Positions 4,253-22,787 of a stretch of 64,000 nucleotides of DNA are shown here, one piece after another (within the stretch, counting starts at the first letter, position 1; each line of letters begins with the position of its first letter). Under the pieces are notes generated by a model. The model saw only the letters and a list, made by a program, of their open reading frames with translations. It did not search any database and had not been told where the DNA came from. This DNA comes from Clostridia bacterium (lineage in GTDB: Bacteria; Bacillota; Clostridia; Christensenellales; UBA1242): the NCBI GenBank assembly GCA_017409005.1, contig JAFQTP010000007.1, forward strand, positions 28,854 through 92,853, written 5' to 3'. The position numbers were made by a program, and so were the translations under genes.

Positions 4253-5410
4253 ATGGATAAAAACAAGAAAACCAATTTAACAATGCTAAAATGTTCTAAT
4301 TGTGGTTCTTCAGTTTTTGAACAAACCAGCGACGATACCTATAAGTGCGGATATTGTGGCTCGGTTGCAAAAGACGATAATGCCGAAAAGCAATCGTTTA
4401 TTAAATTTTTAAGTTCAAAATCTGCTAATGAAAGCAAAATAAGAATTGTTAAAAGCATGATGGGTGAACAAGATTTTTTTAAATATGCAATTGAACATAT
4501 TTCAAATGAAAAAAATTCGCCCATAGATATTTTAGAATCTAAATTTGAAAATGTTGAAATTAGGTATAGTTATTATTTATTAGTTAAGGCCGAGTTTAAA
4601 TTGGCAACACTATCAAATCAATATTTCGAAGATATTTCATATTCTCAAACAAAAAATAAAAAACTCTCAATAAACTCGCAAAAGCAAGTTGAGGAAGATG
4701 TTGTTAACGAATCTATTGCAATTTGTTCGCCTCTTCAAGAAAATGCTTTTGAGGGACAAAGTGAAAAAGTTTATAAAGATTTATATTCAGAGTTTTCAAA
4801 TGTGAATAGTGCAATTCTTTCAGCGGAAGAAATTAAAAAGCGAAACATTAAACTGCCAAGCAAAACAAAAATTTCGGAAGCAATCGACCGTATTATTAAC
4901 GAAACAAAAACCGAGCTGTTAGAAAATAGTGTTGAAAAAAATGTTAGAGTAATGCACAAAATTGACGACATTGAACTTTGTATTGTTCCAGAATATGTTT
5001 TAAAGTTTGAATATAAAAACGAAAAATTTGAGGTGTCGTCGTTTGCATACGATTTAAACATTGTGGGAAGCATTCCAAACGATTCCGAAAATTTATATAA
5101 GCAAGTAATGCAAAAAACTGCAAAGTATCCAATTGTTTCAATTTCTATTTCGGCTGTGTTTGCTCTGTTTGGTTTTATTACATTTGCAATTGCTAGATAT
5201 ATTGCACTTGCATGGGTTTGCATTTTTGCAATTCCGGTTATGCTTGTTGTTTTTGCTTCAACATTTTTCATTGATAAAATTGTAACCAAAAACATTTTAA
5301 CTAAACGATATAATTTAAAGCGAACAAAACTTCAAGAGTTTTTTAAATCTAGAAACATCGACCCAACTTTAACGTCAGAGTTTTTAAATTCGTTTGAAGG
5401 AGGGGAATAA
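4253..5410 (+). CDS. Zinc-ribbon membrane protein
   Basis: N-terminal CSNCGS...CGYCGS; two C-terminal TM segments; RBS AAGGAG. Confidence 0.7.
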   Translation: MDKNKKTNLTMLKCSNCGSSVFEQTSDDTYKCGYCGSVAKDDNAEKQSFIKFLSSKSANESKIRIVKSMMGEQDFFKYAIEHISNEKNSPIDILESKFENVEIRYSYYLLVKAEFKLATLSNQYFEDISYSQTKNKKLSINSQKQVEEDVVNESIAICSPLQENAFEGQSEKVYKDLYSEFSNVNSAILSAEEIKKRNIKLPSKTKISEAIDRIINETKTELLENSVEKNVRVMHKIDDIELCIVPEYVLKFEYKNEKFEVSSFAYDLNIVGSIPNDSENLYKQVMQKTAKYPIVSISISAVFALFGFITFAIARYIALAWVCIFAIPVMLVVFASTFFIDKIVTKNILTKRYNLKRTKLQEFFKSRNIDPTLTSEFLNSFEGGE

Positions 5411-5411
5411 C

Positions 5412-6581
5412 ATGTTAAGAAAAATTTCTATTGCAATTGTTGTTATTGGAGTTGCACTATGTGCACTTGCAGGAATTAGTGTTAACTTAAACCCAATGGT
5501 TGAAAAGGTTTCTTTTACCGAAACTGAAAAAACACTAACTATTAACACTTCTCACAAACTAAATTTTTACACGTATCCAGAAAATGCTCGTTTATCAGCT
5601 TCTGGGCTAGAATGGTCTAGTTCTGACACAAACGTGGCAGTTGTTGACAAATACGGCAATGTTGATGCTGTTGGTGTTGGCACTGTAACTATAAAAGCCA
5701 AATATAAAACAAACACAATTGAATGTGCTATAACAGTTAATCCGGTGTTTGTATCACACTTAAATGTTAGTTATCCATATTCAATTATTCACCCAGCCGA
5801 AACAATGCAAATTGCAGCAATAGTTAAACCTGATAATGCCACTTACAAACAATTAACATGGTCTAGCTCGAACCCAGAAGTTGCTACTGTTTCAAACACT
5901 GGTTTGGTTACTGGTGTTGCCGAGGGAGAAACATTGGTTACAATAAATGCTGCGAATGATGTAACTGAAACACTTGTTGTAAAAGTTCAAAACACAATTG
6001 AGGTTGAAAGCATTGATTTATCTATTAATGTGTTAGACCCAACAAAACTATGGCTTTCAACTTTTAATATAACCCCAACAATTTTCCCTGCTAATGCCGA
6101 TAACCAAACTCTTACATGGTCTAGTTCTAACTCAGAGGTTATTAGTGTTGATTCTGCTGGAAAAGTTACAACACATAAAGATGGTTTTGCAACAATTACT
6201 GCAACAAGTTTAAGTGGTAAAACTGCAAGCATTTATTTAAATGTTCCTAGGGTAGAGGCAACTAGTGTAAATATTGTTAAACCATCGGTGTCGGGTGCAA
6301 CTATTGTGTCTTGCACGATTAGCGTTGGCACCACGTTACAACTAAGGGCAAATTTAACAAGAGGTATTTCAAGTTATCCTTACATCACATCAAGCGGAAT
6401 AACCACACACGAACTTGAGTGGACTTCCAGTGACCCATCTAAGGTTAGTGTAAGTCAAGGCGGACTTGTTACTGCCATTGCTTCAACGGCTAATGGTACG
6501 GGTACAAATTTTGGTGTAACAATTACTGTTACTGTTAAAGGTGTTGGAATATCCGACTCATACATAATTATGGTTAAATAA
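5412..6581 (+). CDS. Secreted protein with bacterial Ig-like (Big_2) repeats
   Basis: Signal/anchor followed by four W(S/T)SSxxxVxxVxxxGxV repeats. Confidence 0.88.
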   Translation: MLRKISIAIVVIGVALCALAGISVNLNPMVEKVSFTETEKTLTINTSHKLNFYTYPENARLSASGLEWSSSDTNVAVVDKYGNVDAVGVGTVTIKAKYKTNTIECAITVNPVFVSHLNVSYPYSIIHPAETMQIAAIVKPDNATYKQLTWSSSNPEVATVSNTGLVTGVAEGETLVTINAANDVTETLVVKVQNTIEVESIDLSINVLDPTKLWLSTFNITPTIFPANADNQTLTWSSSNSEVISVDSAGKVTTHKDGFATITATSLSGKTASIYLNVPRVEATSVNIVKPSVSGATIVSCTISVGTTLQLRANLTRGISSYPYITSSGITTHELEWTSSDPSKVSVSQGGLVTAIASTANGTGTNFGVTITVTVKGVGISDSYIIMVK

Positions 6582-6690: not shown

Positions 6691-7470
6691 ATGATAAACG
6701 TTAAAGGTGGCTTTTTAAAAGCTGAGCAAGTTTACAATAGGTCTAAGTGTAATGGTATTTTCACTTCACAAGCATTGGCGGAAATTTTAAGTTCGCCAAA
6801 TTTTACCGAACTTTTAGAAGCAACAAAACGTGGGGTGGATAATTTAGGTCAGCCTGACCCAGTTTTAACTAAAGTTTTGCAGGAAATTGGTTTTACTGCG
6901 TTGCCTATTATGGTTGATAGCAATCACTATCAACTTTTGGTTAAAAGTGGATTAACTCCAGTTTATAGGGGCGTTAAGCGCGACAATGCAATTGTTGATT
7001 TTGCAACTAACCCAGAATTGTTTGTTGGTAAAGGTCTTTTGTGTAATGGAGTTCATTTTGTTTATGACGATGGCACAAAATCTTCGTACGGTAACACTCC
7101 GCTAGAAATGGCGGCACGATATGCTAGAAAACCACCTAAAGGGCTACATAAAAAAATTGATGCCGACATGCAACACTATAACGAGGGGCAAATTGTTCGA
7201 GCTTTAATTTCCGAGAATGCAAAGGCAATTGAAATTAAAGAACTTTTAAAACTTGCTAAAATGGTTACGGAAAGCATTAAGAGTAATAACACAATTTCAG
7301 AATCAACAAAGCAAAAAATGATTAAATTGTTTTCAAAAGAGGCTTCGGTTATTGCAGCCCTTGAGGGTATTGATGTTATTGTTGCAGAACGAACTAGATT
7401 TTTAATTGGGCTAAATCGTGGTGTGTTTATTATGGATAAAGGAATGGTTGATGCCGAACTAAACAAATAA
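6691..7470 (+). CDS. Hypothetical protein, possible ADP-ribosyltransferase-like fold
   Basis: VYRG...GKGLLCNGVHF...AARYA...GIDVI...GLNR motif order; judged by eye only. Confidence 0.45.
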   Translation: MINVKGGFLKAEQVYNRSKCNGIFTSQALAEILSSPNFTELLEATKRGVDNLGQPDPVLTKVLQEIGFTALPIMVDSNHYQLLVKSGLTPVYRGVKRDNAIVDFATNPELFVGKGLLCNGVHFVYDDGTKSSYGNTPLEMAARYARKPPKGLHKKIDADMQHYNEGQIVRALISENAKAIEIKELLKLAKMVTESIKSNNTISESTKQKMIKLFSKEASVIAALEGIDVIVAERTRFLIGLNRGVFIMDKGMVDAELNK

Positions 7471-7524
7471 AGGAGTTTCAAAACTCCTTTTTCTTTTTTT
7501 CATAAAATGTTGTTAATAAAACAC

Positions 7525-7553
7525 TTGACAATAAGGTGTTGTTTTAATATACT
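7525..7553 (+). promoter_or_regulatory. Sigma-A promoter of the tRNA-Thr locus
   Basis: TTGACA-17 bp-TATACT. Confidence 0.8.
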
Positions 7554-7646
7554 ATTGCCGTCGGTTTTTATAACTGACATAATGAAACATATATGGGTTA
7601 AATTATCGCTAAGCGCATTTATATGTTTTCGGTATTAACTTAATAT

Positions 7647-7686
7647 GCTGATGTGGCACAGTCGGTAGCGCACCGCCTTGGTAAGG
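7647..7686 (+). pseudogene. 5' half of the original host tRNA-Thr(GGT), cut at the anticodon loop (attL of element A)
   Basis: GCTGATGTGGCACAGTCGGTAGCGCACCGCCTTGGTAAGG then unrelated sequence; its stems pair with the 3' halves at 21380 and 25686. Confidence 0.9.
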
Positions 7687-7725
7687 AAAAACCAAGCACA
7701 AAAATTATACCAAATATCTTAATAT

Positions 7726-7801
7726 GCTGTTGTGGCACAGTCGGTAGCGCACTGCCTTGGTAAGGCAGAGGTCACGGGTTCAAGTCCCGTCAACAGCTCC
7801 A
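7726..7801 (+). tRNA. tRNA-Thr(GGT), complete, carried inside element A
   Basis: 76 nt cloverleaf: acceptor GCTGTTG/CAACAGC, anticodon arm CTGCC-TTGGTAA-GGCAG, GGTTCAA T-loop, encoded CCA. Confidence 0.97.
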
Positions 7802-7897
7802 CATATTATACCCTTGAAAAACCCTTTAAAATAGGCACTTTCAAGGGTTTTTCTTTTTCTACAAATTTCAAAATTCTTTCCACAAAAAAATGAAAAA

Positions 7898-8023
7898 TGT
7901 ACCTACAAATACTCCGTAGGTACATAAAAAATCAAAAAAATGACCGACCTTTGATTTTTCAAAAGTCGGTCAAATTCTTTCTAAAACTGCCTTTTCAGGT
8001 ACACGTAGGTACATTTAGGTACA
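7898..8023. repeat. Putative integrase arm-binding sites, left end of element A
   Basis: TAGGTACA motif at 7898 (inverted), 7917, 7996 (CAGGTACA), 8006 and 8016; the last three have 10-bp spacing. Confidence 0.7.
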
Positions 8024-8063
8024 TAGTATTTAAGAACAACAAATTAAAAAATATTATTAATTA

Positions 8064-9377
8064 TTATTCAATAAAGGCTGTAACAATTTCTTCCAATAAT
8101 TTTTTTATATTGTTAAAAATTGCAATCTCAAATTCTTGTGTTCCTCTCAAAACGGATTGCCTATATTTTTTAAAATTCTCCAATACCTTTTCTTTTTCAG
8201 ATATTACACCTTGAAAATCGGATATTTTTTTACTACCTATCTTACATTCACAAAACGAACTCCATCTAATAGGGAAATATGTATTGTGAGAATTTGTTAT
8301 AAATCTCTCAGGTAAGTATAATTCTATTGAACAAGCTCTTCCATTTATATTATCAAAAATAATTTTATTATTAGTTCCAATAGTAGGATAACGGTTGAAA
8401 TTTTTTAAATTGGGATAAGTCAATATTCTAAAATTATTAGGTATTTGACCTATTTCATTAACTAATTTTTCTTTTGACTGATTACCTATAGTATCATTAT
8501 CAAAAACAGCTATAAACTTACTATCAATTTTCGATGTGATAAATGTTTTTATATTATGAGCAATAGCATCGCAACCACCTTGTCTATTTTGTCCCTTTAC
8601 ATATTCGAAATCCATAAAGTAATATAAATTATATAAATGCGGATAAATATTTTTAAGTGTAAATTCTAAAATTTCTTTATCGGTCTTTCCTTCCACTAAA
8701 ACTATAGTTTTAGGGATAATATCTCCAATTTGCATTTGTTCTATGCTTTCATATGTCCAACCAACCATCTCACTTATATCTATTTCCATCACGTCTTCTT
8801 GTTTACAATTCGCCAAAATAAAACGTATAGTATTAATGCAATCAAATTCTTCATAATAACAACCAAAAAACGATTCATCTGATGCACTGAAGATGGACTC
8901 GTATATTATTTTATCGCTTTCATTTTTGGGATTAAGTTCATGAGGTTTTTCTTTATCACTTAAGAGAAAATCATAAATATCATTGTTTAATAAAAATTTT
9001 AAATATTTTGTTATAGAATTTTTCCATTTTCGTATTGTTATATATTTATCAACTCTTTTTTTGATAACTTCTTCTTGCTTTTCAAAATCAACATTTTTAT
9101 CATATAAATATTTAGAATAATCTAATGCTTGATATTTTTTACAACTAAACTCATGTTCAAATCTTTTAATAGTATATCCTATAGAATCCAATCTATCGGA
9201 TGCCGCTTTTACCGTTGTAGAATATCTATATCTTTTACGGATTTCACCATCAATGACAATTTCGTCAATAATCAAATTATCATCGGTAAAAAACAATCCA
9301 AGTGTTTTACTATCGAAAAAGCTTTTCCAAGTAAGCAAACTTAGCTTATTTATTTTTAAATCAACATATACACCCAT
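8064..9377 (-). CDS. HEPN/Toprim-associated N-terminal domain plus OLD-like Toprim protein (probable defence nuclease)
   Basis: IVLVEGKTD and AVFDND Toprim motifs; N-terminus resembles the HEPN_Toprim_N family. Confidence 0.7.
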   Translation of the reverse strand: MGVYVDLKINKLSLLTWKSFFDSKTLGLFFTDDNLIIDEIVIDGEIRKRYRYSTTVKAASDRLDSIGYTIKRFEHEFSCKKYQALDYSKYLYDKNVDFEKQEEVIKKRVDKYITIRKWKNSITKYLKFLLNNDIYDFLLSDKEKPHELNPKNESDKIIYESIFSASDESFFGCYYEEFDCINTIRFILANCKQEDVMEIDISEMVGWTYESIEQMQIGDIIPKTIVLVEGKTDKEILEFTLKNIYPHLYNLYYFMDFEYVKGQNRQGGCDAIAHNIKTFITSKIDSKFIAVFDNDTIGNQSKEKLVNEIGQIPNNFRILTYPNLKNFNRYPTIGTNNKIIFDNINGRACSIELYLPERFITNSHNTYFPIRWSSFCECKIGSKKISDFQGVISEKEKVLENFKKYRQSVLRGTQEFEIAIFNNIKKLLEEIVTAFIE

Positions 9378-9431
9378 AAAATCTATTTCCTTTGTCTACA
9401 TTATACCACAAAAAAATATTTTTTCATATTG

Positions 9432-10823
9432 TTACATCTCAAAATCTTTTTCTCTTTTACGCTTTCTTTCTTGACGTTCTTCCATAAGTTTTTGTAGCAT
9501 GTCGTCAAACTCATCATCAGTCATATCTTTAACAAGTTTTTCCTTTCGTTCTTCAATAACTTCTTCTCTGATGTTTTGGTCAATTAACATTTGTTCTTCC
9601 TTAACTTTTTCATTAAACTTCTCTGTTGTCTGTCTTACATATTCGCTATCCACAGAGTTATATACTGTGATTGTAGTTTTTACATCACGATGACCTAAAA
9701 GTTGTTGGATAACCTTTGGATTTTCGTTCATCTCAAATAACATATTAGAAAATGTATGTCTTAATCCGTGAAATCCAATGTGATATTTCTTCAAATCATT
9801 TCTTTTCTTAAACCTATCAAATATCTTTTTAGTACCTGAATAACTTCTAACAGAACCATCATCATTAGCAAATATAAAAGAAGTCCTAGATGTTAAATCC
9901 CCAGAGACTTCTTTATTTGTGTTTTGTCTTAAAATTTGCTTTTCTCGCCACTGTTTTAAAGTTTCAACAACAATGTCCGCTATTGGTATTTCTCGGACAC
10001 TACAAGTGGTTTTTGTGTCTCCTACGATAGTTACACGGCTTGTTACTTTGCCATCACTATCAAACTTTGGTTCCTGCGTTATTGCTTGTTCAACTTTTAA
10101 TGTTTTATTTACAAAGTCAACATTTTCCCATTTTAGAGCAAGTGCTTCGCCAATGCGGAGTCCTGAGAACATTAAGCAAATACAAAGTGGTTTTATGAAA
10201 TTAGCTTCATCTTTATTTAATGCTTCCAAAAATTTAGTTCTCACTTCGGGTGGTAGTGCCTTGTATTTTTCTTTCTTATTTGGTGCTTTGTCTTTTGTTC
10301 GTATTTGTACTTTTAGGGTAGGATTAACTGATACCCATTTGTTGTCTATTGCATATTCAAAGAATTGACTTATCATGTGTTTGTTTTTCTTTATTGTATT
10401 ATTGCTATACTTCTCATCAATAAGTTTGTTTATCACTTTTTGAATTACAAAAGTATCAATATCATAAATTTTCATATTGCCAATTTGTGGCTCTATGTGT
10501 AATCTAAAATTTCTCATAATGCCTTCAAAAGTTCTTCCAGTAACTGAACTTTTTTTGAATACCAATAACCAATCTGTCATTAGCTCTCCAAAACTTTTAC
10601 TTTCAACTAGTTCATAAGAATTGCTTTTAATTCTGCCACTAACTTCGGCAAGTTTTTTAGCAACTTCGGTTTGGCTATTTCCATATACTGTCTTTTTCTT
10701 TTGTTGACCTTTATCATCATATCCAACAGTTATACTGCCAACCCATTTGCCATCACTTTTCCTTTGAAAGATACTTCCTTCATTATTACTTCTTCTAATT
10801 TTTGACTGAGTTCTTTTAACCAT
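9432..10823 (-). CDS. Tyrosine integrase of element A
   Basis: N-terminal GSIFQRKSDGKW arm-binding domain; SGLRIGE, KT, HGLRH and LLGH...TTITVY catalytic residues intact. Confidence 0.95.
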   Translation of the reverse strand: MVKRTQSKIRRSNNEGSIFQRKSDGKWVGSITVGYDDKGQQKKKTVYGNSQTEVAKKLAEVSGRIKSNSYELVESKSFGELMTDWLLVFKKSSVTGRTFEGIMRNFRLHIEPQIGNMKIYDIDTFVIQKVINKLIDEKYSNNTIKKNKHMISQFFEYAIDNKWVSVNPTLKVQIRTKDKAPNKKEKYKALPPEVRTKFLEALNKDEANFIKPLCICLMFSGLRIGEALALKWENVDFVNKTLKVEQAITQEPKFDSDGKVTSRVTIVGDTKTTCSVREIPIADIVVETLKQWREKQILRQNTNKEVSGDLTSRTSFIFANDDGSVRSYSGTKKIFDRFKKRNDLKKYHIGFHGLRHTFSNMLFEMNENPKVIQQLLGHRDVKTTITVYNSVDSEYVRQTTEKFNEKVKEEQMLIDQNIREEVIEERKEKLVKDMTDDEFDDMLQKLMEERQERKRKREKDFEM

Positions 10824-11082
10824 TCTTCACCTCGCTTGTATTGTTATTTAAAGTTATCCAAGTTACAAAGTTAAGAACACTTACGACTTGTCTTTTACCA
10901 ACTTTTGTGGTAGGGAAATTTTTACTTCTCATCAAATTTCTAACATTATCTCTTCCAAGACCTGTAATCTTTATTAGGTCTTCACAATCAAGAAAATCTT
11001 TATTGTATTTAGTTGTTAAACGGTCAACTTCCGCTTTTATTAAATTGTCAATATTAAGTTGTTTGTTATCGTTAATAATCAT
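10816..11082 (-). CDS. Excisionase / HTH DNA-binding protein
   Basis: Small, overlaps the integrase start; LIKITGLGRDNVRNLM...FPTTKVGKR winged-helix pattern. Confidence 0.75.
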   Translation of the reverse strand: MIINDNKQLNIDNLIKAEVDRLTTKYNKDFLDCEDLIKITGLGRDNVRNLMRSKNFPTTKVGKRQVVSVLNFVTWITLNNNTSEVKNG

Positions 11083-11415
11083 TTAATTCTCCTCATAAAT
11101 TTAAATCTTTGTGTTCTATTAAATTGTAATTTTCTATTCTAAATTTTTGAGAAAGAATATTCTTCTTTCTGCTTTTCTATTCCTAATATCTTCTGTAGCT
11201 TTAAGCATAAGAAGTCGGCAGCTTACTGCCATAAAACGAAAATGGGTATTCCCATTTGTCGTAAAGATAAGGAAGAAAACAATAGATGCAGTTTTGTAGC
11301 ATATAAAAAAGTCCTATTTTATAGGGCTTTTGGATACTTTAAACTAAAATCTATGTTTCTTCCGTTTATCCTGTTTGATTAAAACTCTAAAAATGAGTCG
11401 TTTTGCATACACTTT

Positions 11416-12648
11416 TTACAACTCAATTTCACTATATTTTCTGCGATATTCTTCTTTTTCTCGGTCGGCTTGAATTCTATAATATTCTTGCTGTTTAGCA
11501 TAAGCTTCGCTTTGCTTTTGACGATATATAAAGTTCTTAATTTCCATTTCATCACACTTCGCATAATATTCAAGTAAATCCAAAAGTTTATCCCATTCTC
11601 GTTGTCGCATTGCTTTCTTGTAAGCTTTGTATTGAGCTGTTTTAATATCTAACTTTTCAAGTTCCTCGTGCAGTTTTCCAAGTTCAATGGCTGTGTTGAT
11701 TGTTATATTTCCAAGTCGTCTAAATAGGTCTTTTTTGTAGTTAGAACCTTCTTTGTAATTTCGTTCATCTTTCCATTCTTCAAACTTTTTAAGTGCGTTT
11801 TCAAACTCCCAATAAGTTTCTCTCGTTTGGGTGTTTTTGGTTAAGATAAACTCGGTTACTCCGTCAACATCTTTTTTAACTCTCAACATATTTTCGCTAT
11901 CGTAAGAATGTCTGCCGTCTTTTGGTAGGATAGTGTAAAGATTTAAAAGAAATCGTTTTAACTTTCTTGCCATATCTGTTCTGCTCATTAAAGCATTATA
12001 AGAATAAAGCATATCTTTTCTTGCTTTAAGAATTTGTGCTGTTGGCTTGGTTAGTGCTTTTTCAAATGTAAATTTTGTTGCAATTAGTAAGTCTTTTGAA
12101 ATAGTGCCTGAGTGATATTTTAACTTTCCACCATTGTCAAAATATAATGGCTCCTTTTCAAAGAATGAGATATGAATGTGTTTGTTCTCGGTGTTCTCGT
12201 GAAGTCCCGCATACCAAACAATATTGTCGCCATATAGTCCAGCTCTATTAAAAAACTTAGGAAGTTCTTTCTTTAAGAATTTGTATGCCTGTTCATAATC
12301 TCGACAATATTCATCTCCAAAGTCTTCTCTAAAAGAAATTATCATATCCCAAATAACACTTTGAGTTGTTTGTAGTTGGTGTCGTAAATCTAGTTTTTGT
12401 TCATCATTAAGTAGTCCATCTTGATTAAATGCTCCAAATGATTTTTCTTTGTTTGCTATATATTGCTCATAATCAGATGATACATTTTCACTTGCTCCTG
12501 TGTGAACATAGTTAAGGTAACTATAACTATCTTGGCAACTAACAAAATCTCTATGTGTTGCCATTTCGGGATTATTGGTATAATGGTCTTTTGTTTGGTA
12601 GTATTGTAATTTCATAAAAACATTATCAGTTTGTGGTTCGCTTGTCAT
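11416..12648 (-). CDS. Relaxase (MobL/MobP-like)
   Basis: YLNYV tyrosine, IWDMIISF and LHENTENKHIHISF HUH motif. Confidence 0.85.
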   Translation of the reverse strand: MTSEPQTDNVFMKLQYYQTKDHYTNNPEMATHRDFVSCQDSYSYLNYVHTGASENVSSDYEQYIANKEKSFGAFNQDGLLNDEQKLDLRHQLQTTQSVIWDMIISFREDFGDEYCRDYEQAYKFLKKELPKFFNRAGLYGDNIVWYAGLHENTENKHIHISFFEKEPLYFDNGGKLKYHSGTISKDLLIATKFTFEKALTKPTAQILKARKDMLYSYNALMSRTDMARKLKRFLLNLYTILPKDGRHSYDSENMLRVKKDVDGVTEFILTKNTQTRETYWEFENALKKFEEWKDERNYKEGSNYKKDLFRRLGNITINTAIELGKLHEELEKLDIKTAQYKAYKKAMRQREWDKLLDLLEYYAKCDEMEIKNFIYRQKQSEAYAKQQEYYRIQADREKEEYRRKYSEIEL

Positions 12649-12874
12649 CTTTTACCTTTTCCCATATAGCAGTAGTAGTGTCTTCAATTTGGTCTAACAG
12701 TTCAATAATCTGGTCATCACGATTTTCTTTAAAAGCGTATGATTTTAATACAGCATTAAGAAATTCATTAACACTTTCAAACTTTGTCATATCATACATC
12801 TCTTGTAATTTTTCTAGTAGCCTTACATCTTTAAGGCGTAGGGTATTTACTGGTTTTATTGTATCCGATTTCAT
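12626..12874 (-). CDS. Small RHH-like relaxosome accessory protein (putative)
   Basis: Overlaps the relaxase start; LRL...SVNEFLNAVL pattern; RBS AAAGGAG. Confidence 0.5.
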   Translation of the reverse strand: MKSDTIKPVNTLRLKDVRLLEKLQEMYDMTKFESVNEFLNAVLKSYAFKENRDDQIIELLDQIEDTTTAIWEKVKDDKRTTN

Positions 12875-12889
12875 TAATTCTCCTTTCAA

Positions 12890-13233
12890 GTAATATTTTT
12901 GTTGGTCTTTCTATGATTTTGTTTTCTTTAACTAATACCTCCTTTTAATAAATTTTTTCACAACAAAAAAGAAACCTCGGTGGATAAGATTTCTTTTAGT
13001 TCTTTCTATATTTAGTTTTGGTTAACAAAGAAAAATGCCTACTAACAATAAGTGCAATTTTATCTTCTTTTCCCCCTCATATATATAGGTTTTTTTGAAG
13101 TTTTTGCATCGGTTTTCGATGTCGTTTTTTACAACATTTTGTTAATAGACATTAAAAAAGCCCGAGAATATCGGGCTAAAAAATTTTTAAAAAATTTTTG
13201 AAGTTTTGTGCCAAAAGTGTTAATTTTAGGTTT
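12890..13233. promoter_or_regulatory. Candidate oriT / mob promoter region
   Basis: Non-coding gap upstream of the mob genes with inverted repeat AGCCCGA-GAATA-TCGGGCT and repeated TTTTTGAAGTTTT; nick site not identified. Confidence 0.35.
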
Positions 13234-14229
13234 CTATTTCACCCCTAAAATATTTTTTGAGATGAAATGTATACCTTTGTTAGTTCCATATTGCTTTATT
13301 CTTCTTGGGGCAACATTTAAAGTTATCCACCTGTAGTTTTTCTTTGGAGTATAGCACTTATCTAATTCAACAAAAGAGAAATATAACTTTTCTTCCCATC
13401 GTTCAGGTTTATCAGTTAAACCATCTTGATATTTCCCTTTGCAAACATAAGAATTAACTATTCCATAAAACTTTCCATCAATTTTTGTATCTTTTCCAAA
13501 TATTACATTAAGAAAGGCAAGTGTGGTATTATCACATTCTTTTGTAGATTTTATTCTTCTATAAGGCAAGTCAAATGTAAAATCACTTATATTAAATTTT
13601 CCACGTACAACAAGTTTTTCATCATAATCCGTATCAGTTAGAATATTATACTTACCATTTTCTTTGGCAACAAAAATGTTATAAGCAATTTTATCTCCAG
13701 TATATTCAAAATCTTTTTCTTTTTTCAAATTTACTATGTAAGAGTTTTTTGTTTGTCTGTTTAAGTATGTTTTATTTATTTGTCTTGTTATATAGTCATT
13801 ATCTATTAAATATTTTAAATCACTTTGAATTGTCCTCTCAGTAACAGCAAACTTCCAAGCTAAATCTCTAACCAAGACCTTTCTACCTTTAAGATATTTA
13901 AGATAAGCATATAACTTTTTTCTTCTTAATTCTCGTGTGAAAATACATTTGATAGGTCTTTCAAAAACTTGTTCTTCTTCATCTTCTTCAACATCGTCAT
14001 AATCATTGAGACACCCATATTCATCTTTGTCTTCATAAACCAAAAACTCTAATTTTTTATAGTCATAATATCTTCTAACGCCTCGTTGACCTTTCAAATA
14101 GGTCTTGTTGCGTTCTTTCTTTTCTTTAAGTTTTTCAGCAAGTTCTTCCTGTCTCTGTTGTAAAATTATTTGTCTTTCATAAGGGTCTCTAAAATCCAAA
14201 CCATCATCATTAATATACATACTTATCAC
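13234..14229 (-). CDS. Winged-HTH-containing hypothetical protein
   Basis: VRDLAWKFAVTERTIQSDLKYL DeoR/HTH_11-like motif. Confidence 0.6.
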   Translation of the reverse strand: MISMYINDDGLDFRDPYERQIILQQRQEELAEKLKEKKERNKTYLKGQRGVRRYYDYKKLEFLVYEDKDEYGCLNDYDDVEEDEEEQVFERPIKCIFTRELRRKKLYAYLKYLKGRKVLVRDLAWKFAVTERTIQSDLKYLIDNDYITRQINKTYLNRQTKNSYIVNLKKEKDFEYTGDKIAYNIFVAKENGKYNILTDTDYDEKLVVRGKFNISDFTFDLPYRRIKSTKECDNTTLAFLNVIFGKDTKIDGKFYGIVNSYVCKGKYQDGLTDKPERWEEKLYFSFVELDKCYTPKKNYRWITLNVAPRRIKQYGTNKGIHFISKNILGVK

Positions 14230-14307
14230 AACCTTTCAATCATTATATCACAAAGAAAACAAAATTGTTGGAGTTTTGACAAAAGATTACAAAAAACACC
14301 CAATCAT

Positions 14308-14652
14308 TTAAGATTGAGTGTTTAAGTTAACCCAAATTATTGCTCCTTTAGGATGTTTATAAGGTTTAGGTTCCTTGTATCTTTGAGCATTTTTAATAAA
14401 CCATGCGTAAGTTTTATTGTAAGGTAAATATTTAGTATCTTTAATATTATGCTTACATATGCCATTTTGATAATCTTGTAACGAAAGTTGCTTTGAATCA
14501 TATATTTCACAAGAACCGATAATTTTCCCAGAGCCACTTTCTATCAATTCTATTTTACCTCGAATTTTTGTGTTGCTACCACGAATTTCCCATGTTTTCT
14601 GTCCGTTTAATATGTATTCAATCCAAGGTTTTTTTATTATTAAACCTTTCAT
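14308..14652 (-). CDS. ASCH domain protein
   Basis: GLIIKKPWIEYILNGQKTWEIR signature; coupled to the restriction endonuclease gene. Confidence 0.88.
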   Translation of the reverse strand: MKGLIIKKPWIEYILNGQKTWEIRGSNTKIRGKIELIESGSGKIIGSCEIYDSKQLSLQDYQNGICKHNIKDTKYLPYNKTYAWFIKNAQRYKEPKPYKHPKGAIIWVNLNTQS

Positions 14653-15401
14653 TAAAACTCATCAAATCCTTCATAGGTTGAAAATGCTAATAAATATAAA
14701 GCTTTTAACAAATCGTTGTTGTTTTCTCTTAATTCTTGTATAACAGTATCTTCTTCAACTGTTAATTGTTCATTATTTGATACTATATCTTTGATTATTT
14801 CGGGCAATATCTTGCACAATTTAAAGAACGCCTGATTGTCTCCAGTTACAATTTCATAAAATTTATCTATAGACACTCGTCTAACTTTTTCATTTCCAAC
14901 TCTTTGTCCATCTAACGATATGTACCATGGTATATTCTGACTTTTTCTAGCTATTATTTCAACCAAATAACATTCACAAGAAGGTTCATCTAATGCTTTA
15001 GAAGACAATTTCATATATGTTTTTTGTGATGAACTTGAATTCATTGTATTATGCTTATTTTTTAATTCAACATAAACCTTGTCACCATTATTTTTAGTAA
15101 AAACCACATCAAATCCATGATTAGGAACTTCACAATTTTTAAAATAATTAAAAATATTTTGATGGAAATATCCTATAGCATTAGTGTTTGTTTTATCTCT
15201 CTGTCTAGCAATTTCTTCTTTTATAATAGTTTCCATGTCTTTATTATATACATTGCTGTCAAAAGTTAATTTAATTGGGTCAATTAAATTACTGTTAAAT
15301 TTAGCCAAATTAATACTTTTGATAGTTTCTGAATAAGTAGCTAAAGTTTGTTTTATATGATTTCTCAAATCCTCATCACTTATAAAATTTAAATATGACA
15401 T
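14652..15401 (-). CDS. Type II restriction endonuclease, Eco47II family
   Basis: NLIDPIKLTFD, RQRDKTNTNAIGYFHQ, FDV...ELKNKHNTMNSSS. Confidence 0.85.
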   Translation of the reverse strand: MSYLNFISDEDLRNHIKQTLATYSETIKSINLAKFNSNLIDPIKLTFDSNVYNKDMETIIKEEIARQRDKTNTNAIGYFHQNIFNYFKNCEVPNHGFDVVFTKNNGDKVYVELKNKHNTMNSSSSQKTYMKLSSKALDEPSCECYLVEIIARKSQNIPWYISLDGQRVGNEKVRRVSIDKFYEIVTGDNQAFFKLCKILPEIIKDIVSNNEQLTVEEDTVIQELRENNNDLLKALYLLAFSTYEGFDEF

Positions 15402-16627
15402 AATTTAATCTCCTTTAATGTTTTTGCGATTGCAAGACCAATCTCTTTTGCAAAGTTTACAGGAACCGCATTTCCTATTTGTTTATATTTATTTAACATA
15501 CTTCCATGAAATTACCACTCATCTGGGAATGATTGTATTCTAGCACTTTCTCTTACTGTAAACGGTCTTGTTTCATCTGGGTGGCATCTGTCTGTTTGTT
15601 TCATACATGGAGAGCATAATATTGTAAGACTAGGCTCATCCCAAGAAATTCTTCTTGCCATTCCCGTTTTCCCACCACCCAATCCATATGAGCCTTTCAT
15701 GTAGGCACGAGCAACATCATCTGGCAAATCTCTCCAACAACCACCTGGGGGAACTAAATCAAAAACTTCTTTTTTACTCTGAGGATAAGAAGCTCCTTCT
15801 GATTCTGGAACATTTTGTAAAACATCTCTAAGAACAGGCTTATAATCATGTGGCTCTGGATATTTAAATTCAACATTAAGGTCATTTCTAATTCCTATAA
15901 TAACAATTCGCTCTCGTTTTTCGGCAACGCCATAATCCCATGCATTAAGAACTTTATATTGAACTCTATATCCAATCTCTTCAAAAACATTTATCATCGT
16001 TGTTAATGTTTTTCCACCATCATGATTTACTAAGCCTTTAACATTTTCAGCTAAGAACATTTTAGGTTTAAGTTGCTCTAAGACTTTGGCATAATAATAG
16101 AACATTGTACCTCTAACATCATTTAATCCAAGTCTTTTCCCAGCATAACTAAACGATTGACAAGGATATCCTCCTGACAATAAATCTAGTTCACCTTCTT
16201 TTAAATTTAATAAAGACAATAAATCTCTATTTGCCAAGTCTTCAATAGGTTCACAAAAAACACTCCAATCAGGTCTGTTCATTTTAAGAGTTTCGCAGGC
16301 ATCCTTATCAAAATCATTAGATAACAGATTGTCAAAACCGGCATATTCTAACCCTAAGGCCAATCCACCTGCACCTGCAAATAATTCAACATTAGTAAAT
16401 TTTTTCTCTTTTTTTAAATTTTCAACATTTAGAATTACATTTGCATCAATATTAAAATTAGCAACAATAGAACGTAAGTTGTCATAATTGGGTTTGCTTT
16501 TCCCAGACAACCAATCGCTTACTTGAGCTTGTGTTGCGTTTATTACTTTGGCAAATGTTGTTTGATTTAAATGATTATTACTTATAGTTTGTTGTAAAAG
16601 CAATGACAATTCCATGATTTTTTTCAC
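15389..16627 (-). pseudogene. HTH-fused C5 cytosine methyltransferase interrupted by an in-frame TAA
   Basis: ELFAGAGG, GYPCQ and ENV motifs; TAA at 15512-15514 is followed in frame by FHGSMLNKYKQIGNAVP (motif X) up to the natural stop at 15389. Confidence 0.85.
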
Positions 16628-16734
16628 CTCTAATCCATTATAACATACTTAATCAAAAAATGTATCATTTTTATAGGTTTTCCTATAATTTTTTTAAAAA
16701 AAGAGAATCGTATTGCCAATTCTCTTAAAAACTG

Positions 16735-19026
16735 TTAAATTTTAAATTTGCTTTTCAAATGTTCATAAACCAAATATTCATATTTGTCAAATTTATTTAA
16801 TACATTAATATCTTTAGAGTCCAAATATTTTATAACCTTAAATGGTACCCCGTAATCACTTATTTTTTTTGCATCACTATTTGTACAACTATATTCTAAC
16901 AATGCAATTAAAGATGTAAGATTTGATGAAATTTCATCCATATCACAATTATCTGTTTTGGCAATATTGTATCTTAACAATACATCCAACAATCCCAAAT
17001 ATTTTACCAGGTGATACTTAAAAATATTAAATGTCAATTTAGAGGTCTCTTTAACTGCGCTATCTGGACTTTTCCTTTCCAACTCGAATTTAAGAACACC
17101 ATGAAAACCATCACTTAAATAATGTGCCACTTTTACTGTTAGAAATGAAAAATTTTTTTTCGTCTTTTTTTCTATAAGGTTTTTCAAATCTTCATTTTCT
17201 ATTATTTGGTATATAGATGTCAATAAAATTTCAAAATTATCCCAATTTAAGTATCTTCCAAAATTTAAAACATTTCTTATTTGTTGTTTCCTATATGATG
17301 ATAACTTTAAAATAGTTTCATATAGTGTTATTTTATCAGATAGTTTAATTGTCTTAAACTTTTCTACAATGTGTAAATCCAACCCCAATTCATTAGCTTT
17401 TTGTAACAATTGCTTCTTTGTTGATTTTTGGTTATCAGTTAAATATTTTTCGGAAGCCATCATAACATCTACTTCTGATTTTGTGGCATTTTTATCATAT
17501 TCCAAATTTTTCAACTCTTCCGATTCTGAGTTTAGGATTTGATTAAAATTATTATCAACAGCAAAAACAAAACCTTTAAAATGGTGCATGAATCTACCAG
17601 CTCTTCCTGCAATATTTTGAGCATCAAATTTTTTTAAGGTTTTATTACCTTTTTTATCAGACATAACTATCATATTTTTTGCTGATGTATTTATACCTTC
17701 AGTTATAGTCGTTGTTGAAATTATAGTATCTAGTATTCCTGCATTAAAAAATTCAATTATTTCTTTTTGAATATACTTTGGAATATATCCATGATGAATT
17801 CCTATTCCTTTTTGCAAAGATTTATACAATATCCAATCCTCGCTAAAAGCATGCTTTAAATGGTCTAAAAAGATATAAAATTTTTCTTTTAATTTCAAAT
17901 TCACAATATCGAGATTAATATTAGACTCTTCTTTAAATTGTATTAACCATTTTGCTATTTGTTCAGTTTTATGCCTAGCATCAGTATAAATAATAGATGA
18001 TTTATTTTCACTTTCATATAAAGTTTTTAACAATGTTTTTAACTTATTTTTTGATGGTTTGCTAGTAACTTCAAAACTCAAACCTTCAAAATGATAAGAT
18101 TTTTTTTCATCAATATTTAATATGGCTTTGTTTACTATTTCTATATTGTTATAAGATAAAACTTCAAAGCTATTGTCTTTAAAAAAGTTTTGTATTGAAC
18201 TTGTATTATTTTTTGTTATTTCAATATATGGTCCTGCTAATAATATATCTTTAGATAAGTTACACACAAGTTGTAATGCAACCCTAAAAGACAAGTCTCT
18301 TTCGTTTTCACCTACAGTTTCATTATCCATAATAAACTGGTTGTCTATTTTATATATTTCATCCATAAATATAAAATCAAATTTAAATCTATTTGATTTA
18401 TCTGTCATTGATAAAAATCGCTCAGGTGTATAGATAAATAGATTTTTATCATCATTATTAACATCTTCATCACTCAAAGTATGTATTTTATAATCAGAGA
18501 AGAAATCATCATTAAGCAATTTTATATAATTCTCTGCCAATAAGGAAAGAGTAGGAAAAATTAAAACTATATTCTTATACTTCATCTTTTTAATAATTTG
18601 AGTTACTATAAATGTTTTACCAAAAGATGTTGGAGCTGTTAGGAAAAAACGGTTTTGATTTTCCTGATGAAACTGTTCATATACAATTTTTTGATACTTA
18701 TGAAAAGCTTTATTTTCTTCCATTGCTAATGATGAATTATATATCATATTTGAAAAGTCATTTAAATGAATGTTTTCAAATTTTAATTTGTTATTTTTTT
18801 GCTCTAACAACATTTCATAATATTGAGGAACACCTATTAAATTTGAGAATTTATATAAAAATTTTAATTGTGTTTGGGATAAATCAAAATCCTTTATTAT
18901 GTCAAAGAAATTACATACACACTTAATTAAAACACCTTCTTTTTCTAAGGTATCACAATCATATTTCAACTTAATTATTTCTTCTGCCTTACTATTTAAA
19001 TAAGAGGCTTGTTCTTCTGAATACAT
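16735..19026 (-). CDS. hamB: Hachiman SF2 (Ski2-like) helicase
   Basis: APTSFGKT, DEIY, GIHHG, TTITEGIN and NIAGRAGR motifs; directly downstream of a DUF1837 gene. Confidence 0.85.
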   Translation of the reverse strand: MYSEEQASYLNSKAEEIIKLKYDCDTLEKEGVLIKCVCNFFDIIKDFDLSQTQLKFLYKFSNLIGVPQYYEMLLEQKNNKLKFENIHLNDFSNMIYNSSLAMEENKAFHKYQKIVYEQFHQENQNRFFLTAPTSFGKTFIVTQIIKKMKYKNIVLIFPTLSLLAENYIKLLNDDFFSDYKIHTLSDEDVNNDDKNLFIYTPERFLSMTDKSNRFKFDFIFMDEIYKIDNQFIMDNETVGENERDLSFRVALQLVCNLSKDILLAGPYIEITKNNTSSIQNFFKDNSFEVLSYNNIEIVNKAILNIDEKKSYHFEGLSFEVTSKPSKNKLKTLLKTLYESENKSSIIYTDARHKTEQIAKWLIQFKEESNINLDIVNLKLKEKFYIFLDHLKHAFSEDWILYKSLQKGIGIHHGYIPKYIQKEIIEFFNAGILDTIISTTTITEGINTSAKNMIVMSDKKGNKTLKKFDAQNIAGRAGRFMHHFKGFVFAVDNNFNQILNSESEELKNLEYDKNATKSEVDVMMASEKYLTDNQKSTKKQLLQKANELGLDLHIVEKFKTIKLSDKITLYETILKLSSYRKQQIRNVLNFGRYLNWDNFEILLTSIYQIIENEDLKNLIEKKTKKNFSFLTVKVAHYLSDGFHGVLKFELERKSPDSAVKETSKLTFNIFKYHLVKYLGLLDVLLRYNIAKTDNCDMDEISSNLTSLIALLEYSCTNSDAKKISDYGVPFKVIKYLDSKDINVLNKFDKYEYLVYEHLKSKFKI

Positions 19027-19889
19027 TCTAACACCTCCAATTTAATTGTTTTAGCATCCTTTACTGGTAAAAATATAAAAAATAGTTCCACTTCTATGTT
19101 GTGAGGAATGATTACGGGGTTTGTTTGATTTAGTTTCTCAATTTTTTCAATATATGATTTGATAGTTAAATCATAATCATTATAGACTTCATTTGCAACC
19201 ACTAAAACTGGGTACACTAACTTTCCGTTATATCTTTTAATATCTTCATAAAAATTTCTATATGGATTTTGTTTGCACTCTTCAATAAATTTTTCTATTA
19301 AAGCACCACTCGCAAATGATTGATACCTTTTTTGAAATATGGTTTGAAGATTTTTATTTAGATATTCTAATGTAATATCCTTATTAATATTATCCCAAAT
19401 TTTTTTTAAAGCTCTTGTATATTTATCATAAAATTTAACTTCTCCACACCAAAATTCAAGATTATTACCTTTTTCAATAATATGATGACAATCGTAGCCG
19501 TGAACTTCAGAATTTGATAATAAATCAAAAAACTCTCCACGAGCAACTAAAACATCTGTACCATAGAATACTTGTAAAAATACATTTAATAAAGCTTCTC
19601 CATAAAATCCTAGTTTTAATTTAGCATCATCATCTCCCACATTGAAACGGACTCTAAACTCCAATGCGTTTCGTTGGAGTTCATTTAATTGAGTTAAATC
19701 AATTTGATAATCATCATAAGCCAAATCAACTATACTATTATATATTATATTGGCCACATCAGAATCCTGGTTTGGCTTAAATGCGAAATCTTCACAAGTA
19801 GACACAATGCTTTTAGGAGTATCGTTATGTGGTAATGTATATTGCAAAGTTATAACATTGTTAAATAATTCTTTCAATGCTGATCTCAT
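18996..19889 (-). CDS. hamA: Hachiman HamA (DUF1837)
   Basis: GFYGEALL, HGYDCHH, FWCGEVKFY and FIFLP motifs; overlaps the helicase gene. Confidence 0.82.
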   Translation of the reverse strand: MRSALKELFNNVITLQYTLPHNDTPKSIVSTCEDFAFKPNQDSDVANIIYNSIVDLAYDDYQIDLTQLNELQRNALEFRVRFNVGDDDAKLKLGFYGEALLNVFLQVFYGTDVLVARGEFFDLLSNSEVHGYDCHHIIEKGNNLEFWCGEVKFYDKYTRALKKIWDNINKDITLEYLNKNLQTIFQKRYQSFASGALIEKFIEECKQNPYRNFYEDIKRYNGKLVYPVLVVANEVYNDYDLTIKSYIEKIEKLNQTNPVIIPHNIEVELFFIFLPVKDAKTIKLEVLECIQKNKPLI

Positions 19890-19977
19890 AGACATCTCCT
19901 TATTTGTCATATTATAACATATTTGCAAGAATTTTCCATAACTTATCTAAAAAAATATCAACCAAGTTGAAACTAGA

Positions 19978-20535
19978 TTATTGTTCTCTCACATTAATAA
20001 CTATCTTTTTCTTTTGTTTTGCATAGGCATGGGCAAGAGCAGTGCCGGATTTAGGTTGGTAGTAGCCAATGCTTCGCTTTGAGTATTTTCTCATTTCGGG
20101 TTGATAATTTTCATCATAGTAAAAGACACAATAATCGCTATCGTTTATCATTGCTTGGTTTCTTTCAACATAACTTGCTCGACCAGATGTGTATTTTGTT
20201 TTATGTTCAACTTCTTCTTCAACTCCAAGTAGTGTAACTTTTTCTTTTTTAAAATGGCTATAAATTTCTTCCCAATATGCTCGTTCACTTTCTAATGTGC
20301 AAGTTTCGCTCCTGCAAGTGTAACACTTCCTTATAATGTTTGGATATTTCTCTTTAAGTTCTGTAACCACTAAATGACAAAGGTAGTCAAAATCACTTCG
20401 ACTGCCAAACAAGAATATTAACACATTGTGGTTAACAATTAAATCTTCAATAACTTCCTTTACTTTTTGTTTAAGTTCTTCAGTAATCTCAATTTTTCTA
20501 TGACCAAAGAATGAACATGTTTTATGTTTTTGCAT
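19978..20535 (-). CDS. SLOG/DUF1273 (YspA-like) protein
   Basis: TCSFFGHR, RNQAMINDSD and SGTALA motifs. Confidence 0.75.
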   Translation of the reverse strand: MQKHKTCSFFGHRKIEITEELKQKVKEVIEDLIVNHNVLIFLFGSRSDFDYLCHLVVTELKEKYPNIIRKCYTCRSETCTLESERAYWEEIYSHFKKEKVTLLGVEEEVEHKTKYTSGRASYVERNQAMINDSDYCVFYYDENYQPEMRKYSKRSIGYYQPKSGTALAHAYAKQKKKIVINVREQ

Positions 20536-20710
20536 AATAAAAAACTCCCAAAGTATTCACTTTGAATACTCACACTGGTCATTATAACACAATTTTATGT
20601 TTCTGTGTATTCAAAATGGAGTTTTTGAGAAAAATTTATGTGTGTGGCTTTCTAACGAAAAACCATTCTTAAATTATAATTATTGTAACAACAAATAATT
20701 AGGAGTTTTT

Positions 20711-21010
20711 ATGGAAATCAAAGAAATCTTATCAAGAATTGGTTATGTTAGAAATAAAGCCAATTTATCCGCAAGAGAAGTTAGTCAAAGAATGGGTATG
20801 AGCCCACAATATGTCGCACAGCTTGAAAGTGGTAGAATTGTATTGACTGTTGAAAAGTTATTACAAATTTTAGAGATTTGTGAATTTCCTATTGATAGAT
20901 TTTTCAGTTCGAACATAGCTGACTACAAAATTGACAATGAATTAAAATCATTAATAGAATCTTTACCATCAGACAAAAAGAAAAACATAATTGAATTTAT
21001 TAAGAAATAA
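20711..21010 (+). CDS. XRE-family HTH transcriptional regulator
   Basis: LSAREVSQRMGMSPQYVAQLESG; RBS AGGAG. Confidence 0.85.
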   Translation: MEIKEILSRIGYVRNKANLSAREVSQRMGMSPQYVAQLESGRIVLTVEKLLQILEICEFPIDRFFSSNIADYKIDNELKSLIESLPSDKKKNIIEFIKK

Positions 21011-21255
21011 AAATAGCATTAGGATAATTCCTAGTGCTGTTTTTATCATTATACAGTATTGATGTTTTAGGGAACAATTTAACTATTTTTATCTCGATTT
21101 GTTCCCTAAAATGTGTATTACCAAAATCAACTTAAAAAACTTGTTATGCTAAGTTTTTTGGGATATTTTTGGTAGTAATTTTTAAGTAGAAGTAAAAAGA
21201 TTTAAATAGTTTTAGATAGTTTCAAATCAACAAATTGAACCTAAAAATATGCTTG

Positions 21256-21298
21256 TAGGTACAGTTAGGTACAGAAGTTTTAAACTTATATGTACCTA
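21256..21298. repeat. Putative integrase arm-binding sites, right end of element A
   Basis: TAGGTACA at 21256 and 21266 (10-bp spacing), inverted copy at 21291. Confidence 0.7.
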
Positions 21299-21379
21299 TT
21301 AAAAAAATACTAGCAAAAACACTAGTATTTAAAGTGGATTATTTAGATAGGGTTGAAGTTCTTTCAATTCTATTTTAAG

Positions 21380-21424
21380 TTGGTAAGGCGGAGGTCACGG
21401 GTTCAAGTCCCGTCATCAGCTCCA
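21380..21424 (+). pseudogene. tRNA-Thr 3' half (attR of A / attL of B)
   Basis: TTGGTAAGGCGGAGGTCACGGGTTCAAGTCCCGTCATCAGCTCCA. Confidence 0.9.
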
Positions 21425-21701
21425 ATGCCTTAAATCCCTTTATTTATCGGGCTTTTCCGGTATTTACAGGGATTTATTTTTTTTGCAAATTTTTCCTCAA
21501 AAAACATATAAATTGTGGAGCAAAACTTATTTTTGAACTAGCGTATTAAATCGGTCTAAAATTTTAAGGTTTGCTTTTATGATGAATTTCTAACTTTCCT
21601 GTTTTTGGCGTTCTAAGTCGGTCTATGTCGGTATAGTTGGCTCCAAATGGTCCCTGTAAATAAAAAAGGAATGTATCTTTTTACATTCCTTTTTAAATTG
21701 C

Positions 21702-22175
21702 CTACTTAATAATTCCTCCGTTACATTGTAATTCATAAACGAGTTCGTTATTTTTATAAATTCTCTCTAATCCTGTGAAGTTTTCCATACTTCCAGTAAC
21801 TTCAAAACCATATGAAAATTCACCATTTACAAACTTGCTTGGTCCACGCAATGGTAATACTAAATTATCAGATCCAACTTGCATTAAAGCTGGTCTCAAA
21901 GCATTGTCCATAGCTTCTTCGCTTAGGTTAGGATTGATTGTATTTCCATAATAATTCATAGCCCAGATCGGTTTTTCATCAATGTAAACAACTTCTGAGC
22001 CTATAAACTTTTCTCCACCGAAATAAGTATCGTGATAGCAAAGTTTTTTATTGTTGATGATTTCTTCATATTGATAATCTTTTGAGCCAATGCGTGAAGA
22101 GTTAACTTTCGCAGCATTTCCATTTGCATAAGTATTTTTCTTTGCTCTTATTAAAAACTCCAATATATTTTCCAT
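21702..22175 (-). CDS. DUF5680-like protein
   Basis: FLIRAKKNTYA, YHDTYFGG..F.G.E, WAMNYYG and RGP motifs. Confidence 0.7.
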   Translation of the reverse strand: MENILEFLIRAKKNTYANGNAAKVNSSRIGSKDYQYEEIINNKKLCYHDTYFGGEKFIGSEVVYIDEKPIWAMNYYGNTINPNLSEEAMDNALRPALMQVGSDNLVLPLRGPSKFVNGEFSYGFEVTGSMENFTGLERIYKNNELVYELQCNGGIIK

Positions 22176-22188
22176 AACTCCTCCCTAA

Positions 22189-22725: not shown

Positions 22726-22787
22726 ATTTTCTCCTATAGCAATATTATAACACACATATTCTATATTTGCATTGCTTTATTAAATAA

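Follow-up and report, generated by a model that had tools for sequence, protein, structure and literature searches.

How can a cell keep its supply of tRNA-Thr(GGU) when the gene for it has been cut in two at the anticodon loop by an integrated element? According to the rule for islands in tRNA genes, as given in the available text of PMC4383910, attP holds a fragment of the tRNA and integration rebuilds the gene. The locus examined here, within a stretch of 64,000 nucleotides (the window), is organized in another way, and its parts have been identified and compared with related loci through in silico analysis.

The resident tRNA-Thr(GGT) gene is represented by separated parts. An orphan 5' half on the plus strand (7647-7686), which starts with the acceptor stem and stops in the anticodon loop, forms attL; it comprises the first 40 nt of a tRNA-Thr and ends in TTGGTAAGG (core, 7678-7686), beyond which the DNA is no longer tRNA. 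The 3' part is present twice, as identical copies of 45 nt on the plus strand. The first of these (21380-21424) comprises the core at 21380-21388 and the 3' half complementary to the orphan, and constitutes attR of the island; the second (25687-25731) is followed by a simple terminator at 25737-25758. The 9-bp core is the sole sequence common to both halves, identity stopping there on both sides. It corresponds to the anticodon loop of tRNA-Thr(GGU) plus two bases and occurs four times in the 64-kb window, always at tRNA/att sites (0.67 occurrences expected). At the attL junction, ARAGORN reported no tRNA for the 5' half alone or for the half with the spacer that follows it; the 5' half joined in silico to either 3' half is recognized as tRNA-Thr(GGT), with the acceptor stem GCTGATG/CATCAGC and the anticodon stem CCGCC/GGCGG. 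A previous sequence-only reading of this DNA had described a tRNA-Thr split at the anticodon loop with just a 9-bp core duplicated, and both the sequence and the core counts agree with it. The pairing of the 5' half with two 3' halves, also described there, stands for the copy at 21380, whereas the second copy starts at 25687 and not at 25686. It may be added that an inverted repeat spans the crossover region (7677-7696), its arms being CTTGGT of the core and ACCAAG eight bases further on; these may be core-type binding sites of the integrase.

The first element DNA behind the core is an A-rich spacer of 39 nt, unrelated to tRNA (7687-7725, plus strand), in which the CTTGGT of the core is found inverted as ACCAAG and the last bases are those of the leader CTTAATAT. 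It separates the orphan half from a complete, element-borne tRNA-Thr(GGT) identified with ARAGORN (7726-7801, plus strand; hereafter the cassette), behind which a terminator hairpin with a T-run is located (7810-7858, plus strand; hairpin at 7810-7848, -15.7 kcal/mol, z -4.4). The cassette is self-consistent: its acceptor stem (GCTGTTG/CAACAGC) pairs at 7/7 positions and its anticodon stem (CTGCC/GGCAG) at 5/5, each stem differing from the split gene by one compensated pair, and the anticodon loop is unchanged. A full tRNA-Thr(GGT) with two compensatory pairs just inside the element, as reported before, is thereby confirmed, and the two pairs are best read as a mark of separate ancestry of the cassette. 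The leader CTTAATAT does precede both the host gene and the cassette, as had been noted, at 7639-7646 and 7718-7725; a leader ending in ...AATAT is common to the tRNA-Thr genes and cassettes of this clade. Seven of the eight TAGGTACA sites in the window lie just inside the island ends, four of them at 7898-8023 (P' arm) and three at 21256-21298 (P arm), which is the position expected for arm-type integrase sites. Because these sites stand at the two element ends, the cassette sits between the core and the arm repeats, in line with the earlier description; cassette and terminator are both part of attP, between the core and the P' arm.

Dozens of independent assemblies show the same layout, which makes a misassembly very unlikely as its source. 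At repeats, MAG contigs may be chimeric, and the contigs of the 20 public runs that contain parts of the stretch break there: over 7000-26400, those of runs X1, X3, X5 and X9 break at 7673, 7996, 21409 and 25715, with no joint at the cores. In one contig of run X3, from another sample, a 3' half of the type seen in the split gene is joined at its end (21426) to the post-cassette terminator (7839), with 19 other letters between them, which points to a further cassette variant in that community.

The element bounded by these junctions measures 13.7 kb (7687-21379), and all of its genes are on the minus strand except that of an HTH_3 regulator (20711-21010, plus strand). The gene nearest to the cassette end encodes a protein with a HEPN/Toprim N-terminal domain, a cargo gene with a probable defence function (8064-9377; PF18871, 2.4e-9), which gave no PADLOC or NCBIfam match. 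It is followed by a tyrosine integrase of 463 aa (9432-10823; PF00589, 9e-26, with SAM-like N-terminal domains) and by a small HTH_17-like protein overlapping the integrase start (10816-11082; a weak match, E 0.0095, below the Pfam cut-off), which by its position is a candidate Xis-like excisionase. Further genes encode (i) a MobL/MobP-type relaxase (11416-12648; PF18555, 9.9e-21; MobP2/MobP3 matches below cut-off); (ii) a type II restriction-modification pair, formed by an Eco47II-like endonuclease (14652-15401) and a C5 methyltransferase (15512-16627); (iii) a Hachiman system, with the HamB helicase (16735-19026; 2.2e-245) and HamA (DUF1837; 18996-19928; 1.2e-83) adjacent and their genes overlapping at 18996-19026; and (iv) a YpsA/SLOG-like protein (19978-20535). 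The IME features are an integrase, a MobL relaxase and an att core at both ends, with no conjugative apparatus of its own. Since neither phage structural or lysis families nor T4SS or conjugation-apparatus families are found among the Pfam matches of the ORFs in 7687-21379, the element can be classified as an integrative mobilizable defence island, its mobilisation presumably depending on the relaxase. Just outside the islands, a protein of 148 aa matching the candidate defence family PDC-S57 (25786-26232, minus strand; 4.9e-13) and another C5 DNA methyltransferase (27101-28339, plus strand) are encoded, and the chromosomal flank may itself be a defence locus.

The cassette is preceded, at a distance, by the sigma-70-like promoter of the resident tRNA-Thr gene, TTGACA-17-TATACT (7525-7553, plus strand; 11/12 matches), from which the orphan half is separated by a leader of 93 nt. 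Between 7584 and the cassette no other promoter-like site was detected, and between the promoter and the cassette no terminator-like site. Across the related loci treated below, promoter-like sites occur in 0/49 spacers, compared with 19/36 of the regions upstream of the outermost half, and their absence from the spacers fits a cassette driven by the resident promoter. The proposal that the host promoter at 7525 drives the cassette is consequently well supported by the promoter and terminator scans, as a prediction from sequence. In the genome, 35 tRNA genes were found, nearly all of them single-copy, and the cassette is the sole Thr(GGT) gene. ACU and ACC together account for 51% of the Thr codons in 426 long ORFs; a tRNA-Thr(UGU) is also present and might read ACU. 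The tRNA-Thr(GGU) is probably essential, and the cell would then depend on the cassette.

The layout is not restricted to the window. A total of 127 integrase relatives were confirmed in species-representative genomes and 79 loci were fetched, all from Clostridia/Christensenellales gut MAGs, with integrase identities of 53-98%. ARAGORN identified 57 tRNA-Thr(GGT) genes in them, every one on the strand opposite to the integrase, and all of the tRNA-Thr genes located beside integrase homologues were Thr(GGT); the remaining 22 loci were without a tRNA, many of them on short contigs. By local alignment, a 5'-half look-alike is present upstream of 40 of the 57 tRNAs, three others having no upstream sequence. 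A structural detector, applied to the tRNAs with at least 130 nt of upstream sequence (n=51), found orphan halves upstream of 38, a number that rises to 43/51 by eye and is descriptive, as are the other junction counts, because related MAGs supplied the loci, which cannot be counted as independent events. The arrangement seen in the window is in this way found again among its integrase homologues. The 38 tRNAs comprise 24 with single, 11 with double and three with triple halves. The 13 undetected cases include degenerate halves recognized by eye (five: L040, L058, L065, L066 and L093), a core with a non-tRNA left flank (two: L069 and L090), a spacer without a core (L055) and ordinary leaders (five: L031, L038, L056, L061 and L079), and from the last group it follows that the family also includes standard-looking arrangements. 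Spacers measure 39-63 nt across the family, which is the distance of the cassette from the crossover, and at every junction examined the crossover site is the anticodon loop of tRNA-Thr(GGU).

Comparison between loci indicates to which partner the full tRNA belongs. The cassette and spacer of the window recur unchanged in G042 and G041, whose integrases are 97-98% identical and whose contexts differ: in G042 they are nested inside the cassette of another island, and in G041 the right end of the island, with 98% identity over 825 nt, borders on another 3' half. At the level of single loci, the spacer is nearly identical in L029, L069 and L050, and the cassette is identical in L029 and L069. In G043 (88% integrase identity) a 5' half, an element of about 15.7 kb, the matching 3' half and a plain terminator follow each other, and the junction ...TTTAAG-core-AAAAACC is kept. 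For another cassette type, with the acceptor GCTAATG, no fewer than five different target halves were found as neighbours. The cassette is part of the element and travels with its integrase lineage. The earlier reading is borne out here: the element carries a whole tRNA, and with its 9-bp core it does not rebuild the target gene.

Stacks of two or three orphan 5' halves are present at 14 loci, which means that cassettes are re-targeted by later elements. Of the seven loci that could be judged, five (the window, L052, L068, L083 and L097) have, as the first 3' half downstream, the complement of their innermost orphan 5' half, as nested insertion would predict; L057 and L085 are exceptions. These stacks also bear on the suggestion that the changed anticodon stem guards the cassette from re-integration: the cassettes are themselves targets, and cassette and target-half stems are identical in 11/56 junctions, so a protective role of the recoded stem is unsupported and was rejected. 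The stem differences have another consequence. If an element supplied the 3' half only, a mismatched chimera, in which the acceptor or anticodon stem contains one or more unpaired positions, would result in 40/56 junctions, the window included, and this mispairing with the 5' half of the host is a possible reason for carrying a whole tRNA.

In our judgement it is highly probable that a mobilizable defence island splits tRNA-Thr(GGT) by way of a minimal core, does not repair it, and places its own whole-tRNA cassette behind the resident promoter. The process that would lead to the observed anatomy is as follows. The tyrosine integrase would recombine the attP core TTGGTAAGG with the resident tRNA-Thr(GGT) gene, and because attP has only the core in common with that gene, integration would leave two dead halves, 7647-7686 and 21380-21424. 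The cassette has its own terminator and lies on the P' side of the core, 39 nt from the crossover and ahead of the P' arm sites; it would for that reason land directly behind the resident tRNA promoter. It would be transcribed from there and its tRNA trimmed from a leader containing the orphan half. The only tRNA-Thr(GGU) of the cell is now island-borne, and precise excision would rebuild the old gene. With a whole cassette and a core limited to the anticodon loop, the need to match the acceptor and anticodon stems of each host would be removed, presumably to the benefit of host range. The cassette is in turn a good target, and with each later insertion into it another orphan 5' half is added to a nested stack.

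Two other explanations of the full tRNA have been weighed against this process. The cassette might mainly provide an additional tRNA or one that resists nucleases, such as anticodon nucleases, complementation being incidental; such a possibility is raised for phages in the discussion of PMC10865867, within its available text, the island is full of defence genes, and the HEPN/Toprim gene adjoins the cassette. It is nevertheless improbable, since the anticodon is always that of the split gene (57/57 Thr(GGT)), the cassette keeps its fixed place 39-63 nt from the crossover with an unchanged anticodon loop, and stems equal to those of the target in 11/56 junctions speak against a systematic escape change. 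Alternatively, the tRNA at 7726-7801 could be a chromosomal gene rebuilt by a canonical island, with the half at 7647 as a stray duplication or assembly artefact. This would follow the usual rule for islands in tRNA genes (PMC4383910, available text), but we regard it as hardly credible: the parts of the full tRNA match each other and not the 3' halves at 21380 and 25687, with both of which the 5' half pairs perfectly; the full tRNA, spacer and integrase recur together elsewhere beside different halves; and the layout was found in 38-43 of 51 surveyed loci from independent assemblies.

Beyond attR lies a second, smaller element of 4.3 kb (21425-25686), with a DUF5680 gene, a frameshifted integrase gene and a 518-aa unknown gene. 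It starts with a cassette-style terminator of the nested-hairpin form (21431-21476) and ends with GGCGGTT repeats (25634-25679). Its integrase (22883-23956, minus strand) is 30% identical to that of the 13.7-kb island and is cut short after 357 aa, where eight consecutive A occur near 22905; its C-terminal motif, which includes the catalytic tyrosine, is found in another frame, down to about 22788, and the break may represent a frameshift, a homopolymer sequencing error or slippage. A relative of this integrase with 43% identity, encoded in G195, heads an element with its own cassette. Flanked by two 45-nt 3' halves (a 45-bp repeat), the 4.3-kb element looks like a canonical island, or like a cassette-type island that has lost its front part.

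The presence of this older element raises the question of what the 13.7-kb island has split. Intact tRNA-Thr genes of the split-gene type occur in the congeners G004 and G002, as had been expected for relatives with an empty site, and about 50 nt at the window promoter match the promoter region of the intact gene in G002; no strictly syntenic empty site was found, however. A tblastx comparison of both window flanks with the tRNA-Thr loci of 10 relatives gave no match, and in the congeners searched, tRNA-Thr has neither the gene of the left-flank protein nor that of the right-flank NUDIX protein as its neighbour, so the empty-site argument is carried by the intact genes of G004 and G002 and by the G002 promoter. 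The promoter region shared with the intact gene suggests that the split gene may be chromosomal. It is less likely, but deserves serious consideration, that the split gene was a cassette or restored copy left by the older 4.3-kb element, with the 13.7-kb island nested in an earlier island; the original host gene would then survive only as the 3' half at 25687, and the history would differ while the mechanism stays the same. This history would account for two identical 3' halves next to just one 5' half. It is also consistent with the terminator after 21424, built in the nested-hairpin style seen after cassettes, with the occurrence in G041 of a cassette whose tRNA does not differ from the split one, with the older integrase being a homologue whose relative in G195 heads a cassette-bearing element, and with a leader before 7647 about 50 nt longer than in G002. 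Against it, the sequence from the promoter to 7647 contains no other orphan 5' half, the promoter region is common to the window and the intact G002 gene, and the older element is accounted for just as well by a standard attP with a 3' half of 45 bp.

Whichever gene was split, splitting by way of the core and supply of a whole tRNA, as set out above for the 13.7-kb island, could be part of a wider pattern, to which we give an even chance. The tRNA-Thr(GGU) locus of gut Christensenellales would be a nested 'leapfrog' landing pad for a family of mobilizable defence islands with the anticodon loop as their sole attB requirement, where each newcomer takes over the resident promoter with its own whole-tRNA cassette and kills the previous one, and the cell depends on the newest island. 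A single-copy and probably essential gene would in this manner be replaced repeatedly by foreign versions; the whole tRNA would give a broad host range, and deletion between two cores could revert a cassette-type island to a canonical one.

The principle itself is already known. In tRNA-dependent lysogeny, described by Guerrero-Bustamante and Hatfull (mBio 2024, PMC10865867) for the actinobacteriophages Fionnbharth, LeBron, Cain, Gaia and others, the available text reports cores of 8-17 bp, tRNA-Lys, tRNA-Ile2 or tRNA-Leu genes that are not rebuilt, and a phage tRNA required for lysogeny. The island and these phages share a tyrosine integrase, an attB inside a tRNA gene, a short core, a tRNA that is not rebuilt and arm-type sites flanking the core, and all the sequence-level features of tRNA-dependent integration are present in the island, which is not a temperate phage. 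There are also major differences. The actinobacteriophages are, by the same available text, temperate phages at tRNA-Lys, tRNA-Ile2 and tRNA-Leu genes, whereas a non-phage mobilizable defence island at tRNA-Thr(GGU) is found here, and the best match of its integrase in the phage collection is 33% identical. In contrast to the phages, the island family has its cassette within attP, downstream of the resident promoter and at 39-63 nt from the crossover, and islands insert serially into each other's cassettes, leaving stacks of orphan halves. The requirement for the tRNA is experimental for the phages in the available part of PMC10865867 and is deduced for the island. Prophage Lj965 of Lactobacillus johnsonii, a Firmicute host, is named in the accessible discussion of PMC10865867 as a possible case outside Actinobacteria, in which the tRNA is reportedly not rebuilt and a cognate tRNA is carried; it is a prophage and not a mobilizable island.

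Canonical anticodon-loop islands identified with Islander likewise possess, in the available text of PMC4383910, a tyrosine integrase and a crossover in the 7-nt anticodon loop, and they may form tandem arrays at one tRNA gene with the displaced 3' fragment at the far end. Unlike them, as that text describes them, the 13.7-kb island has an attP that rebuilds no tRNA, whereas the 4.3-kb element with its 45-bp repeat looks canonical. Works citing the term tRNA-dependent lysogeny are, in their available parts, phage studies and one Sinorhizobium prophage survey, and the literature covered beyond PMC10865867 and its citing works, a coverage that leaves out most subscription journals, gave no description of non-phage islands or stacked 5' halves. 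What is new is the position of the cassette inside attP, the nesting of the stacks, and a family of such islands that are not phages.

A principle demonstrated in 2024 for actinobacterial phages is hereby extended to non-phage mobilizable defence islands, and their integrase is widespread: among 150 other genomes sampled from the window's own gut family, 29, or about one in five species, encode a homologue (E 1e-80 or better), representing 22 of 58 genera with the window's own counted. A single-copy tRNA gene can evidently be replaced horizontally, and the order of island arrival can be read from the stacked orphan 5' halves. Programs that locate islands by a tRNA accompanied by a 3' fragment will misplace or miss those described here. 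An integrase acting at the anticodon loop together with a tRNA cassette could become a broad-host integration tool for gut Clostridia, which are genetically hard to manipulate.

Several minor observations concern the composition of the arrays. On contig G249:C6 there are four integrase matches, one of them a 96% identical copy in two pieces with one internal stop each (TAA and TGA), an array with decaying members, and on G041:C6 two islands of the same family lie about 30 kb apart. In L069 and L090 the left junctions carry non-tRNA DNA before the core and spacer, which suggests that another element was inserted into attL and that tandem rather than nested arrays were formed. Four genomes of the family (G012, G015, G020 and G013) display the layout of half, spacer and full tRNA, but a homologue of the integrase is absent from them at E 1e-80 or better; either the design is shared by other integrase lineages, or cassettes have outlived a lost integrase. 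Within 1.5 kb of the half-plus-full loci L010, L011, L018 and L027 no integrase was found; in G003 an integrase lies further downstream than that distance, and the contigs of G020 and G012 end there.

In L095 (reverse-complemented, about 5280-5424), a hybrid tRNA-Thr combines the 5' part of one cassette type (GCTGGTG/CCACC) with a 3' part (GGCAG/CAGTAGC) that pairs with the upstream orphan half instead; its acceptor pairs at 6/7 positions and its anticodon stem at 3/5. It could stem from recombination at the wrong core, from an island supplying the 3' half only, or from a chimeric MAG contig. Finally, a short hairpin (stem of 5, loop TTT or TTTT, no T-run), absent from the short spacer of the window, is conserved 3-5 nt before the cassette in several spacer types, for example in L064, L065, L068, L052 and L083, and might be a processing signal or a protein-binding site.
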